Shown: positions 361 through 41,845 of the stretch, piece after piece
Layout of the letters: each line of letters opens with the position of its first letter
Numbering within the stretch: the first letter of the stretch is position 1
Source of the DNA: an uncultured Acidimicrobiia bacterium
Lineage (GTDB): Bacteria; Acidobacteriota; Terriglobia; Versatilivoradales; Versatilivoraceae
Reading direction: 5' to 3'
Length of the DNA stretch: 64,000 bases
Assembly (NCBI GenBank): GCA_963810905.1
Contig: CAWEPG010000002.1
Coordinates: 242,178-306,177 of the forward strand
Translations under genes and position numbers: made by a program
Notes under the pieces: model-generated
Databases searched by the model: none
What the model was told of the DNA's origin: nothing
What the model saw: only the letters and a program-made list of their open reading frames with translations

Positions 361-525
361 ATTCGATGTCTATCCTCTTGGAGGGCGGAGCTCTGCGACG
401 CCACTGTAAACTCTAAAATCAGATACTTATCGGCTCGCCTCGCCCCAGCGCAGGAGAGAGTATGGAGGTGAGGGGGACTGCGACGTCGCGTCAGGGCGGA
501 GCGTCCGTTCCACCTAAATCGGACT
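361..525. repeat. MITE-like intergenic repeat, copy 1 (terminal motif GGAGGGCGGAGCTCTGCGACGCC at 379-402, degenerate inverted copy ~465-505)
   Basis: A 23-bp motif is shared with 13444-13466, 38198-38220 (inverted) and 41714-41736 (inverted). The internal segment CTCGCCCCAGCGCAGGAGAG...GGAGGTGAGGGGG recurs inverted at 38224-38275. Confidence 0.6.
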
Positions 526-533
526 ATTTTCTT

Positions 534-2683
534 CTATTGCGGCGTCACCCCTAACTGCCAAAACAAGAAACTGATCTCATCGGTCAACTCATCAATTCTC
601 TTCCCTACGGGAGTGGAACCTCGCGAATGACCCGCTTTCGTATCATATAAGAGCATCACCGGACGATCAGAGCCTGATGAAGCCTGCAAGAGCGCCGTCA
701 TCTTCCGTGCGTGCAGCGGAGCGACGCGCGTGTCGCTGTCACCTGTCACGAAGAGCACCGCAGGATATTTCGTTCCAGGCTTCACGTTCTGATAAGGAGA
801 ATAAGCCAGCAGCACCTTGAACTGCTCGGGATTTTCAGAAGACCCGTATTCCGGGACCCAAAACTTGGCTACAAGAAATTGATGATAGCGAATCATGTCG
901 AGAAGAGGATAGGAGCAGATAACGGCCCGGAAAAGTTCAGGCTGCTGGGTCAGGGCTGCTCCGACCAGCAATCCTCCATTGCTTCCACCCGAAATGGCCA
1001 ATTTGGAAGGGTCTGTATAATTTTGTTTGATGAGCCATTCGGCAGCGGCAATAAAATCGTCGAAGACATTCTGTTTTTTTTCCAGCATGCCAGCTTGATG
1101 CCAGGTCTCCCCGAATTCGCCACCGCCCCTCAAATTTGGAACGGCAAAGACCCCGCCGTGCTCTACCCAGTAGGCCGCCAAAGGGGAGAAACTTGGCGTC
1201 TGGCTTTGCAAGAAACCGCCGTAACCGGTCAATAAGGCCGGGTTTTTTCCATCACGCCGCAAGTCTTTGGAGTGAACCACGAACATCGGCACCCGGGTTT
1301 GATCCTTGGAGTTATACCAAACCTGAGTGACTTCAAACCGGCTGGCATCAAACGGGATCTTCGTCTGAGCCCAAACTTCCTGCATATCCGCGGTGGAGTC
1401 GTACCGATAGATCGTTGTCGGGATCAGGAAAGAGCTAAATGAAAAAAATACCTCTCGATTTTTCCACTGCCCGGAAACCCCACCGACACTACCGATGGCG
1501 GGAAAAGCAATCTCCCGTAAATATTGACCGTCTTTGGTGAAGATTTTGACCGATTAGCGAACCTCTTTCAGGAAGTTGACAAATACCCGGCCACTGGCGG
1601 CGGAAAAGCCTACGATTGTGGCATCACTTTCAGGAATGATTTCCCGCCATTTTTCTTGTGCAGGATCTCTTCAAGTCCACTTTTAAGATCCGGCCGTTAG
1701 GCGCTTTCCAATCGGTTTTCAGGTAGAGAACGTTTAGGGCGACATCAGGCTGGAATCTGGCCTCGATGTCGGTGACAATGGGAATCCATTGCTTTCCCTT
1801 TAAGAAGATCGCACGCATACACTTCGGTCTTCTTGGCGGCAGATCCGTAATGAATGGTGGCGATCAAATACTGCCCGTCTTCGGAGAGGGAGAGGCCAAT
1901 GATTTTCTCAGGACCGTACCCCTTTCCGAAAATCTCAACATCTGCTTCGGGAGCTTTTCCCAAAGTGTGGACATAAACTCGAGGGCCTTCTGGACCAAAC
2001 CGAGAAAAATAAATATCTTGATTGTTTGGATGAATCGAGATTCCGGTGTAACGAGCTCGTGGCAGTTCATCAGGCAATTGCTGGCGTGTCGCAACCCGCA
2101 TCAGATGAATTTCGATTTCGTCGGCTCCGCCGCGTCGGATCCCATAAGCTACCAGGGTCCCATCTTGAGAGACATCCAATAGATCAATGCTGGTGGTGTG
2201 GTCAGCACTCAATGAATGGGGGTCAAGGAGAACCTCATCTGGCCCCTGTAGCCCCTTCCTGACATAAATGGCAGCCAAGTCCTGGTCTGCCTTCCGTTTG
2301 GAAAAAAAATAAAGCCCGTTCCGCTCGGTTGGGACGCCAAGAGTGTCCGTTCTTAACAACTCCGAAAGTCGCTGCTTCATGGCCTCTCGCCCAGGCAATG
2401 GCTTCAAGAGCGAATTTGAATAGTTATTCTGAGCATCGATCCAGGCTCTTGTCTCGGAGCTGTTTTGATCTTCGAGCCAGCGATAGGAGTCAGTCAATTC
2501 GACCCCATGCAGTGTTTCCCGGGTCACTTCTACTTTGGTACTGGGATATTTTTGTTCTTGCGCAAATGAAAATTCGTAAAAACAAAAGAAGAATAGAAGC
2601 ATCGCCAAACAAGCATTCCCTGCCAGCTTCTGATGACCGCTACCAGAACGCCTAGTTGAGCTCAATTCGTTATGTCGTTTCAT
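534..2683 (-). pseudogene. Prolyl oligopeptidase (peptidase S9A): N-terminal beta-propeller plus C-terminal catalytic domain, with signal peptide. Reading frame is broken at least twice (~1630-1640 and ~1745-1820)
   Basis: The N-terminal part (MKRHNELS..., hydrophobic leader, TRETLHGVELTDSYRWLED) is in frame 1745-2683. A middle piece (LNVLYLKTDWKAPNGRILKVD) is in a second frame at 1630-1818. The catalytic part with the GGSNGG serine motif is in a third frame at 534-1385. This could be a real pseudogene or an indel error. Confidence 0.75.
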
Positions 2684-2730
2684 GAGAATTCCGAAAATGG
2701 GTAGGGTAATCCAGACCAGATTGCCATATT

Positions 2731-39908: not shown

Positions 39909-40258
39909 TGAACTAACTCCAGAAGGATCTCAAAGGGGAATAGATGAATGCTCATCTCATTATATCGTCAAATCACCCACCAGAGCACAGACATTATCTT
40001 GCAACTGAATAAGGACAAACATCTGCGATGATCCAAAAGGGACTGTCTAGACATTTTAGAATACGAGAGACGTTTCCAAAGATGGCGCGCTGATCTATCC
40101 AGTTCTTCTATCATTGAATCATCCTGTCTTCGGAGTGCGGGAGCTTGCTGCCGCACTCCAATACCCCTAATCTTTTCCCCAAATCACCTCAAAGTCCACG
40201 TGAATCAGAATTTCTTCAAGCCATTCAAGGTGATCAGGACATCCCCCATTACGACTCA

Positions 40259-41638
40259 TTAACGTTCCGTCATGCCATAGTCCTTAAGCTTTTTCTGGAG
40301 TGTGCGCAAACCGATGCCAAGGAGTTGGGATGCCTTGAGACGATTTCCACCGGTCTTTTCTAGGGCTTTTACAATCGCTTGTTTCTCAATGGCCCCCATG
40401 CTTAAGTCCTCAAACACTGGAACGGATTGGTCTTGCTGAAGAGATTGCTTTTCGATCTTGGATAGAATATCTGCAGGCAGATCCTCGATATTCAGGCGGT
40501 CCCCTCTTGAAAAAATAACCAGATTTTCAATCAGATTTTTAAGCTCGCGAACATTTCCCGGCCAAGGGTATTTGGCCAATACCTCCATGGCATCCGGGGA
40601 GACCTGAGAAACCGTTTTGTGATGTTCGCCGGAGAACTGTTGGACGAAATGTGACACAAGGAGGGGAATGTCCTCTTGTCTTTCACGCAGTGGTGGAACA
40701 TGAAGAGTGACTACCTTGAGTCTAAAGTAAAGATCGCTCCTGAAGATGCCTTTCTCAACGGCCTGGCTCAAATCCCGATTGGTCGCAGCCATCAAACGGA
40801 CATCCAGCTTTATCGCTACATTCCCTCCGACACGCATGATCTCGCGGGTCTCTAGAAATCGTAATAACTTCACCTGCATTTCCAGGGGGATCTCACCTAT
40901 TTCGTCCAGAAAGAGAGTTCCACGGTCGGCTAATTCCAGCTTCCCGACACGTCTCTCCATCGCTCCTGTAAAAGATCCTTTTTCGAATCCAAAGAGCTCA
41001 CTTTCCAGCAGCGACGCACTTAAGGCAGCACAATTTAATGGAAGGAAGTTTTCTTTTCGCCGCGGGCTATTGTCGTGGATCGTCTGAGCCAGCAGATCTT
41101 TCCCCGTTCCACTTTCTCCCAGCAGCAATATCGTTGACCGAGTAGGCGCGACCGTTGCCGCTTGTTTAAGCAGATCTTGCATCACGGCGGACTGCCCAAC
41201 CATTTTGTCAGTCCCCAGATGACTCAGCATCTGGCGTCGCAAGGTACGGAGTTCATTACGTGGTCTGCGGTGTTCCAGGATCTGCCGGACGCGGTCGCGA
41301 AGTTCAAAAAGGTCTAGAGGTTTTAAGATGTAGTCATCAGCTCCCGATTTGAGAGCCTCCACGGCTGTTTCGACCGTTCCATGCCCGGTCACGATTAGGA
41401 AGCCCGCCTCCGGATTGACTTCGCGAACTTTCTTGAGCAATTGGACGCCATCAACCCCGGGCATCTTGAGATCACTGACGAAGAGATCCACATCTTTACA
41501 AGCATCGATTTGCTGCAGTGCTGTTTCACCGTCTTCAAAGCTGAGTACCTCGTATCCAACTTTTCGCAGCGCACGGCTAATGGAAGCCAGGCTTTCACTT
41601 TCGTCATCCACTACGGCAATGTTGTATGGTCTATCCAT
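40259..41638 (-). CDS. Sigma-54-dependent response regulator (NtrC family: receiver + AAA+ + HTH)
   Basis: MDRPYNIAVVDDE is the receiver domain. GESGTGK is the Walker A motif and GSFTGA the sigma-54 contact. There is a C-terminal Fis-type HTH. The ORF-track N-terminal extension to 41737 overlaps a repeat and was rejected. Confidence 0.9.
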   Translation of the reverse strand: MDRPYNIAVVDDESESLASISRALRKVGYEVLSFEDGETALQQIDACKDVDLFVSDLKMPGVDGVQLLKKVREVNPEAGFLIVTGHGTVETAVEALKSGADDYILKPLDLFELRDRVRQILEHRRPRNELRTLRRQMLSHLGTDKMVGQSAVMQDLLKQAATVAPTRSTILLLGESGTGKDLLAQTIHDNSPRRKENFLPLNCAALSASLLESELFGFEKGSFTGAMERRVGKLELADRGTLFLDEIGEIPLEMQVKLLRFLETREIMRVGGNVAIKLDVRLMAATNRDLSQAVEKGIFRSDLYFRLKVVTLHVPPLRERQEDIPLLVSHFVQQFSGEHHKTVSQVSPDAMEVLAKYPWPGNVRELKNLIENLVIFSRGDRLNIEDLPADILSKIEKQSLQQDQSVPVFEDLSMGAIEKQAIVKALEKTGGNRLKASQLLGIGLRTLQKKLKDYGMTER

Positions 41639-41699
41639 TTCTCGTGATTTCCACCTGATGGCACCAATAATTTTGAGGGTGCCCAGTCCACTATGGGGC

Positions 41700-41845
41700 A
41701 AAATCAGTAGACGTCGTCGCGGAGCTCCGCCCTCCAACCATCGAATTAATTACATGCTGGAGGGTCGAGCTCCTGCGAGATCGGATGAAAGCAATGGTGG
41801 AACGCTCGCGTGGGACGCGGTCCACGCGCGCTCCACCTGATAGCG
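41700..41845. repeat. MITE-like repeat, copy 3 (ends 41714-41736 and 41757-41782 form a ~70-bp near-perfect hairpin)
   Basis: TCGCGGAGCTCCGCCCTCCA ... TGGAGGGTCGAGCTCCTGCGAGA. Confidence 0.65.

Follow-up and report, generated by a model that had tools for sequence, protein, structure and literature searches.

Repeats of the REP kind and the locus studied

Repetitive extragenic palindromic (REP) sequences, such as those of the REP-RayT system of Escherichia coli and the REP doublets (REPINs) of Pseudomonas fluorescens, consist of a short unit, 20-40 nucleotides long, which forms an imperfect hairpin preceded by a conserved, unpaired tetranucleotide at its 5' side. Their stems fall into subtypes that differ by compensatory changes. 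They are found as singlets, as inverted doublets of mostly unlike subtypes and as clusters, for the most part outside genes and without duplication of a target. They accompany a single-copy REP-associated tyrosine transposase (RAYT), which has the repeat on both sides and sits in conserved synteny, paralogous RAYTs each having a private REP family. Here we describe a 23-nucleotide motif, GGAGGGCGGAGCTCTGCGACGCC, repeated in a 64,000-nucleotide stretch of DNA (contig CAWEPG010000002.1, positions 242,178 to 306,177; the whole stretch is henceforth called the window). All the features tested fit a REP/REPIN with its RAYT, apart from the literal tag, which is GGAG and not GTAG. The motif is, in all likelihood, the unit of a REP/REPIN family of Verrucomicrobiota with a cognate RAYT, and it is this protein which most likely spreads and maintains the family. 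A preliminary description, made from the letters of the window, had seen there a miniature inverted-repeat transposable element (MITE), with the motif as its inverted ends.

REPs have been catalogued by their tags, GTAG and CGTC, and Opitutus terrae, the only member of the phylum examined in that survey, is rich in repeats of the types GTAG-17 to GTAG-20 (Di Nocera et al., 2013; PMC3733652). These differ in sequence from the GGAG family. Where the O. terrae repeats lie within genes, they are translated as VGPALAAG or GTGVPPV (PMC3733652). A survey of HUH endonucleases does not mention Verrucomicrobia (PMC6006769). Neither GAGCTC nor GGAGGG occurs in the text-form supplementary files of PMC3733652, and the family was not found in the literature searched, where the 14-mer GGAGGGCGGAGCTC has no occurrence. 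The REP/REPIN kind of element is already known. What is notable here is a tag that reads GGAG, a stem with conserved tandem G·A pairs, unlike what is known of REP-RAYT systems, and the fact that tag and loop are conserved in several classes of the phylum. This conservation is unusually deep, when many REP families are confined to one species or genus.

Other elements bear comparison. Bacterial interspersed mosaic elements (BIMEs) of E. coli, which are characterised by the binding of IHF, gyrase or Pol I, are intergenic mosaics built from REPs of two subtypes in alternating orientation, between which other short motifs are inserted. The present family makes mosaics of the same sort, and its arrays with a period of about 117 nucleotides recall those of BIME-2, but its linker motifs, the modules B and C described below, are unrelated to those of BIMEs. 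As for the ends of IS200/IS605 insertion sequences (ISs), the likeness is in the associated protein, which belongs to the same HUH Y1 superfamily (Pfam Y1_Tnp), and in an imperfect hairpin with an adjacent tetranucleotide, the recognition of which is predicted to take place on single-stranded DNA, with neither terminal inverted repeats (TIRs) nor target duplication. Unlike these ends, the present repeats are not the two extremities of a mobile gene cassette, and the RAYT is single-copy in a fixed synteny. Finally, MITEs, among which Correia in Neisseria and Nezha in cyanobacteria, are likewise short, dispersed and non-coding, with inverted symmetry and long hairpins. In contrast with MITEs, the repeats described here show no target duplication, no fixed length or interior and no related DDE-type IS, and their pairing lies within each arm.

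A family of repeats in Verrucomicrobiota

The 23-mer is found exactly in the window at 380-402 (+) and 38193-38215 (-), and with two mismatches at 41713-41735 (-), that is, three matches where none was expected from 100 dinucleotide-preserving shuffles. These places mark what the preliminary description had termed copies 1, 2 and 3, and the repetition that it reported is real. Repeat search further revealed a variant arm, TGGAGGGTCGAGCTCCTGCGAGAYCGG, in opposite orientation at 38294-38319 and 41758-41783, which bears out the inverted motif noticed at the other end of copies 2 and 3.

A scan of 185,579 species-representative genomes, using a pattern that covered both variants present in the window, matched at least 119 stretches. 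Among the matches listed, nearly all come from metagenome-assembled genomes (MAGs) of Verrucomicrobiota, distributed over Chthoniobacterales/Udaeobacter, Opitutales/Lacunisphaera, Kiritimatiellae, Lentisphaerales and Limisphaerales; four (loci L004, L020, L022 and L055) are chance matches inside coding sequence. Bona fide doublets are also present in bins labelled Armatimonadota, Terriglobia and Dormibacterota (L003, L060, L062, L085 and L090). The sequence of L090, which over 2.6 kb has 84% identity with the Verrucomicrobiae locus L001, suggests mis-binning of at least this bin, not transfer between phyla.

The conserved pairing lies within each arm

The unit, or arm, has a length of about 24 nucleotides. 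It reads (T)GGAG, then GG NN GA GC, a loop TC(C)Y, and finally GC GA N'N' CC. An unpaired 5' tag precedes a stem of 4 bp (GGNN/N'N'CC), which is continued by a stack of two G·A pairs and then by two G-C pairs up to the loop; the latter comprises 3 nucleotides in 103 arms and 4 nucleotides in 72. The tag GGAG is nearly invariant, and over 90% of the arms have G at its position 2. A T precedes the tag at position -1 in 81% of the arms, and conservation does not extend further upstream. Unlike the CGTC super-family of REPs, the present one has no constant terminal CGTC tag: this tetranucleotide is seen in the CG subtype alone, on its complementary strand, as part of the covarying stem.

The structure was derived from the behaviour of positions 7 and 8, which covary with the dinucleotide of the tail, giving the subtypes CG/CG, GC/GC, CC/GG, TC/GA, AT/AT, AC/GT and CT/AG. 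Position 7 is paired in 168 and position 8 in 165 of the 175 unique arms, whereas shuffling gave 96±4.6 and 85±6.5 pairings, with maxima of 113 and 109 in 1000 shuffles. A formal covariation count was made on a clean alignment of 45 arms, restricted to those with 3-nucleotide loops. The share of paired cells there was 96.7%, as compared with 81.3±1.5 for shuffles and 27-44% when the partners were slid, and changes on both sides of a pair affected 39 cells, against 13.7±2.3. None of 500 shuffles reached the observed value of either quantity. The GC and AT subtypes were outside the search pattern, so that they constitute an independent confirmation of the arm hairpin. In rare arms, Watson-Crick pairs take the place of the G·A pairs. 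The minimum free energy fold of a single arm is the structure derived from covariation, and the arm at 379-403 folds in this way.

When arms of unlike subtypes face each other, the duplex which they could form is mismatched exactly at NN, where each arm pairs with itself. The conserved pairing is within each arm, not between terminal inverted repeats.

Compensatory changes also bear on the idea that the motif is a site on double-stranded DNA, be it the binding site of a conserved host protein (gyrase or a nucleoid protein, for instance) or a signal for DNA uptake in the manner of the uptake sequences (DUS/USS) of Neisseria and Haemophilus. These uptake sequences often occur in inverted pairs, and inverted pairs are frequent here; the sequence is conserved across the phylum, with a core, GCGGAGCTCCGC, that is nearly palindromic. 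However, the changes maintain a pairing within the strand that a duplex site does not need, and the stem exists in several subtypes which are interchangeable. Uptake sequences do not share the strong extragenic bias of the sites, and a specific association with one RAYT, presented below, would be left without explanation. We find a site of this nature scarcely credible.

Arrangement and location of the arms

Arrangements were counted for 236 arms in 115 loci. Singlets are common. Inverted pairs with their tags outside account for 152 arms (76 pairs), with spacers of 0-61 nucleotides which are unrelated in sequence. The other adjacent pairs have their tags inside (22, mostly within arrays) or stand in tandem (4). 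The two members of a pair are mostly of unlike subtypes (CG+GC in 30 cases, CG+TC in 11), with CC+CC in 10 cases and CG+CG in a single one. Tandem arrays with a period of about 117 nucleotides are present at L010, L033, L041 and L054, belonging to Kiritimatiellae and, for L010, to a lake Verrucomicrobia MAG, and L113 has a tandem array with a period of 48 nucleotides. The repeated unit in such arrays may be a REP doublet or a single arm.

These arrangements are those against which the MITE must be judged. It would be a deletion derivative of a DDE-type IS, with the 23-mer as its TIR, moved in a cut-and-paste manner by a transposase encoded elsewhere. A dispersed, multi-copy family would fit this picture, as would the inverted arms around short spacers and the long hairpin into which the pair of copy 3 can fold. 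Yet no target-site duplication was found in 82 doublets, at offsets 0-3 and with k from 2 to 5, where there is no excess over shuffled pairings. Many arms are singlets, there is no fixed unit, and the arms that form a pair are usually of unlike subtypes and mismatched, as we have seen, where each of them is self-paired. Orthologous copies persist across species. No full-length IS with such ends turned up, and the gene associated with the repeats codes for a tyrosine transposase of the HUH type. A MITE with 23-bp inverted ends thus appears very improbable.

On a crude gene map, 31% of the sites are located within open reading frames (ORFs), as compared with 76% of random positions, and those outside ORFs are distributed over tandem, convergent and divergent spacers in the proportion 43/16/18. 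Since the preference for a type of spacer is weak and the gene map crude, we claim no preference for the 3' ends of genes.

This distribution is relevant to another explanation, according to which the motif acts at the level of RNA, as a terminator, a stabiliser of 3' ends, a processing site or a site for an RNA-binding protein, with a sequence kept by selection and not by transposition. Several facts are in line with it: the extragenic location; the position of copies 1 and 2 between convergent gene ends, where the first base of the arm 38192-38216 comes 9 nucleotides after the stop codon of metH; the stable long hairpins that doublets form; and the fact that, at orthologous sites, arms are more conserved than spacers. 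E. coli REPs, besides, have secondary effects at the RNA level. But no terminator-like site with a T tract exists at 38100-38500, which spans the spacer between metH and htrA, no T run comes after the arms, and classical terminators occur separately, beside the arms, in other genomes (at L027 for example). Rfam has no match at gathering score across the whole window, and only chance sub-threshold matches around the copies. The arms are not limited to 3' ends but occupy all types of spacers, in both orientations, copy 3 being upstream of a gene, and tandem arrays are hard to account for. The presence of the family on both sides of one RAYT subtype would be left unexplained. We deem it unlikely that the motif is primarily an RNA-level element, and the role of terminator that had been suggested for it does not hold as a primary one. 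Such a role is compatible with the REP reading if it is secondary and exapted: long doublet hairpins may possibly have secondary effects on RNA in the host, for example by stabilising the 3' ends of mRNAs.

A probable cognate RAYT transposase

When all the ORFs of the motif loci were compared with E. coli RayT using phmmer, four ORFs near arms matched. The protein of locus L115 belongs to the NCBIfam family REP_Tyr_transpos (NF047646), with 90.9 bits for a cutoff of 80, and also to Pfam Y1_Tnp; the truncated ORF of L096 scores 79.4 bits with NF047646, just below the 80-bit cutoff. These two proteins are different RAYT subtypes, and the motif family keeps company with one of them. In all of the 12 loci with a RAYT of the L096 type (L096, L074, L191, L194, L196 and L202-L208), arms of the family flank the gene on both sides. 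At L191, the downstream arm starts 3 nucleotides past the RAYT stop codon. A tblastn search with the L096 protein showed that L191, L194 and L196 have a second RAYT, of the L096 type, flanked by arms.

The association was also tested in the reciprocal direction. Five homologues with 64-86% identity, several of them named RayT by JGI, were collected by protein search alone and their contigs fetched. All seven loci obtained in this way (L202-L208) have arms on both sides of the RAYT gene. By contrast, a metagenome scan for which the seed alignment had the L115 RAYT at its head brought up for the most part the L115 subtype. In none of the 31 loci of this paralogue is the motif family next to the gene. 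Of the 25 loci that could be evaluated, 24 have, on either side of the L115-type RAYT, a different REP family proper to it, TGGAG-CCGGCGCG-CCCT-CGCGCCGG paired with TGGAGA-CGGCCCG-CCCT-CGGGCCG. The tag is the same GGAG, the hairpin is another one. For the REP field this makes a clean case, where each of two RAYT paralogues has a hairpin family to itself, under a common tag.

The L096-type RAYT is single-copy and follows a gene for a PAS/HisKA kinase, itself preceded by the PNPase gene wherever the upstream DNA was fetched. This conserved synteny is as expected of a vertically inherited RAYT, and the L096 type appears to be vertically inherited. By analogy with E. coli RayT and with the transposases of IS200/IS605, a single-copy HUH tyrosine transposase of this superfamily would recognise the hairpin together with its tag on single-stranded DNA, the predicted substrate being TGGAGGGCGGAGCTCTGCGACGCC. 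It would then cut and rejoin at hairpin plus tag, by a reaction that would produce no terminal inverted repeats and no target duplications. This cleavage chemistry, as well as activity in the source genome, we infer. The label of MITE is thereby replaced by a testable one, that of a REP/REPIN with a named cognate transposase subtype, and the idea of REP-like sites, already voiced in the preliminary description, proves to be the right one: the units are REPs, often in REPIN-like doublets.

Some observations weigh against a REP/REPIN family with a cognate RAYT. The tag (T)GGAG is outside both the GTAG super-family and the degenerate variants listed for it, GYAG, GYRG, GTRG, GTMG and GTGG (PMC3733652). 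In the nearest-neighbour model, the hairpin of a single arm is thermodynamically weak (-4.7 kcal/mol, z -0.9). There is no RAYT gene in the window, which represents 64,000 of the 906,877 bp of the source contig, nor in a syntenic stretch of 23.7 kb from the relative L120. The 12 RAYT loci are partly dependent, as L203 and L204 have the same protein, L207 and L208 also share theirs, and L191, L194 and L196 are close. Judging by the synteny of PNPase, kinase and RAYT, they apparently come from one part of the phylum, so that the RAYT link is established for this part, and for Opitutales, for Kiritimatiellae or for the lineage of the window itself it would be an extrapolation. Finally, the motif is common in intergenic DNA, and some of the flanking might be due to chance; this is countered by the contrast between arms on both sides in 12/12 loci of the L096 type and 0/31 loci of its paralogue.

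A broader proposal can be made, tentatively, and we would sooner bet against it than for it. The GGAG repeats would be a third REP super-family, beside GTAG and CGTC, stemming from an ancient partnership of RAYT and REPIN, vertically co-inherited across Verrucomicrobiota, including Kiritimatiellae and Lentisphaerae, where paralogous RAYTs would each have a private hairpin family and a common tag. Were this true, nature would have performed an experiment separating recognition of the tag, for the site of cleavage, from that of the hairpin, for specificity.

With reference to annotation, public RAYT proteins (L202-L208 and L191; P0035-P0148) have an N-terminus which is extended through the upstream REP doublet, with the peptide 'GGRSSATP'. 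This extension is the translated doublet, hence the annotated RAYTs of about 190 residues are probably some 60 residues too long. Translated arms explain a recurrent noise in the annotation of Verrucomicrobiota MAGs, made of spurious small ORFs and of N-terminal extensions of this kind, and the covariance model R1 may be used to mask the elements or to count them. Among other observations on RAYT genes, those of L191 and L074 have frameshifts, and L097 codes at 7424-7948 (-) for the C-terminal fragment of a third, more distant RAYT-like protein, with a REP doublet (arms within 7727-7792) inside its frame or just upstream. This may be a disrupted RAYT.

Persistence and decay

Arms are kept at orthologous sites between relatives at the species level. 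Identity at these sites is 89.5% for arms, against 76% for the spacers (Fisher p 5e-4) and 82% for the flanks (p 3e-5). The window was also compared with the relative L120, 98% identical to it across 17.3 kb. The only indel of more than 2 nucleotides in this alignment is an 18-nucleotide loss within a third arm of copy 2. This arm is intact at 13887-13909 of L120 and, by alignment, reduced to a truncated remnant at about 38370-38382 (-) in the window. It follows from the intact arm of L120 that copy 2 originally consisted of a solo arm, a module B and a doublet with its tags outside. Elsewhere in L120, some 673 nucleotides (4046-4718), including a gene with domain PF06983 (3-dmu-9_3-mt), are absent from the window (at about 29157).

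Copies in the window as mosaics of modules

Applied to the window, R1 recognises five intact arms at E<=1.3e-4, plus a degenerate sixth one. Copy 1 has a single arm at 379-403 (+), of the CG subtype, TGGAG-GGCG-GA-GC-TCT-GC-GA-CGCC, which contains the exact motif (42.3 bits, E 1.7e-7). On one side of it an unnamed ORF ends (stop codon at 358-360) and on the other a peptidase S9 gene (534-1385, -), the two being convergent. Common 9-10-mers had suggested a fourth arm, decayed, at about 493-515 of this copy; R1 gives it no support.

Copy 2 occupies the spacer on which metH (34488-38183) and the gene for an HtrA-like protease (38445-39908) converge. It comprises an arm of the CG subtype with the exact motif at 38192-38216 (-; 42.3 bits) and an arm of the TC subtype, with a 4-nucleotide loop, at 38294-38319 (+; 33.7 bits, E 1.4e-5). 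The latter is the left arm of the tags-outside doublet, the right arm of which has decayed in the window genome.

In copy 3, an arm of the CG subtype with a mutated tail, GACGAC, at 41712-41736 (-; 32.4 bits, E 2.7e-5) and an arm of the TC subtype at 41758-41783 (+; 29.4 bits, E 1.3e-4) form an inverted pair with tags inside and a spacer of 21 nucleotides, which can fold into a hairpin of about 70 nucleotides. The fold of 41710-41788 is indeed a long hairpin, as had been noted, imperfect and with three interruptions (-19.7 kcal/mol, z -3.6). The statement that all copies come right after gene ends is correct for copies 1 and 2. It is not for copy 3, which is in a divergent spacer upstream of the gene for an NtrC-like regulator, the receiver domain of which starts from residue 40 of the ORF 40259-41737.

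Solo motifs had also been reported. The one placed at 13444-13466 corresponds to the degenerate arm, TGGAGGG-GGGGCTCTGCGACGCC, at 13452-13475 (+), with 22 of 24 consensus positions (18.7 bits, E 0.034). The other, at about 16090-16115, has only the 10-mer TCTGCGACGC in common with the family and no R1 match at E<=10, and we do not retain it.

Other repeats accompany the arms. Module B is a separate family, outside the arm, with a hairpin plus TGGAGGTGAGGGGGA, located at 427-477 (+), 38229-38279 (-) and, alone, 3830-3874 (+); in the window it adjoins REP arms twice and stands alone once. Its layout is CGGCTC..CCCCAGCGC..GGAGAG..TGGAGGTGAGGGG, with an internal hairpin of 9-10 bp. In copy 2 this module contains the perfect 10-bp hairpin CTCCTCTCCC/GGGAGAGGAG which had been noted there (fold -11.5 kcal/mol, z -2.2). 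The inverted match between the interiors of copies 1 and 2, also noted, is this 51-nucleotide block, with 84% identity. From copy 1 to copy 2, the arm and module B each change orientation, but their order from left to right is unchanged, the arm coming first, whereas inversion of a single element would have reversed it. The copies are therefore not those of one element, contrary to what the preliminary description assumed: copies 1, 2 and 3 are different mosaics of independent modules.

Module C, of yet another repeat family, is a 43-nucleotide palindrome, GGTGGAACGCTCGCGTGG...CCACGCGCGCTCCACC, at 41796-41838 (fold -15.4 kcal/mol, z -3.4). It adjoins the pair 41712-41783 and shows indels and substitutions with respect to L120, being a hotspot of differences between the window and this relative. 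The GC-rich palindromes 41796-41838 and 40128-40163 both have TGGA(G/A) at their two outer ends, hence a tag on each strand, and may belong to other families of REP-like units. A scan of the window for GGAG followed by any perfect hairpin gave no enrichment, with 11 occurrences against 9 in the reversed-sequence control, so that GGAG-tagged hairpins of other families are not demonstrably common in the window. The REP family of the L115-type paralogue is absent from it.

Other repeats and genes of the window

Three copies of a segment of 120-380 nucleotides, 78-89% identical and unrelated to the REP family, are found at 5238-5612, 13591-14028 and 16333-16619; paralogous genes with a repeated upstream region may account for them. 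A direct repeat of 56 nucleotides (CCCCCTCCTTACCAAAGAGGGGAACC...), with 80% identity between 44908-44963 and 58788-58843, represents another short intergenic repeat family. The adjacent ORFs 49046-50422 (458 residues) and 50427-51482 (351 residues) share a 90% cluster with proteins of 792-811 residues that are each in one piece, so that the gene appears to be split in the window genome. The 569-residue ORF 55942-57651 (-) clusters with proteins of 776 residues, and may thus be truncated or have a miscalled start.

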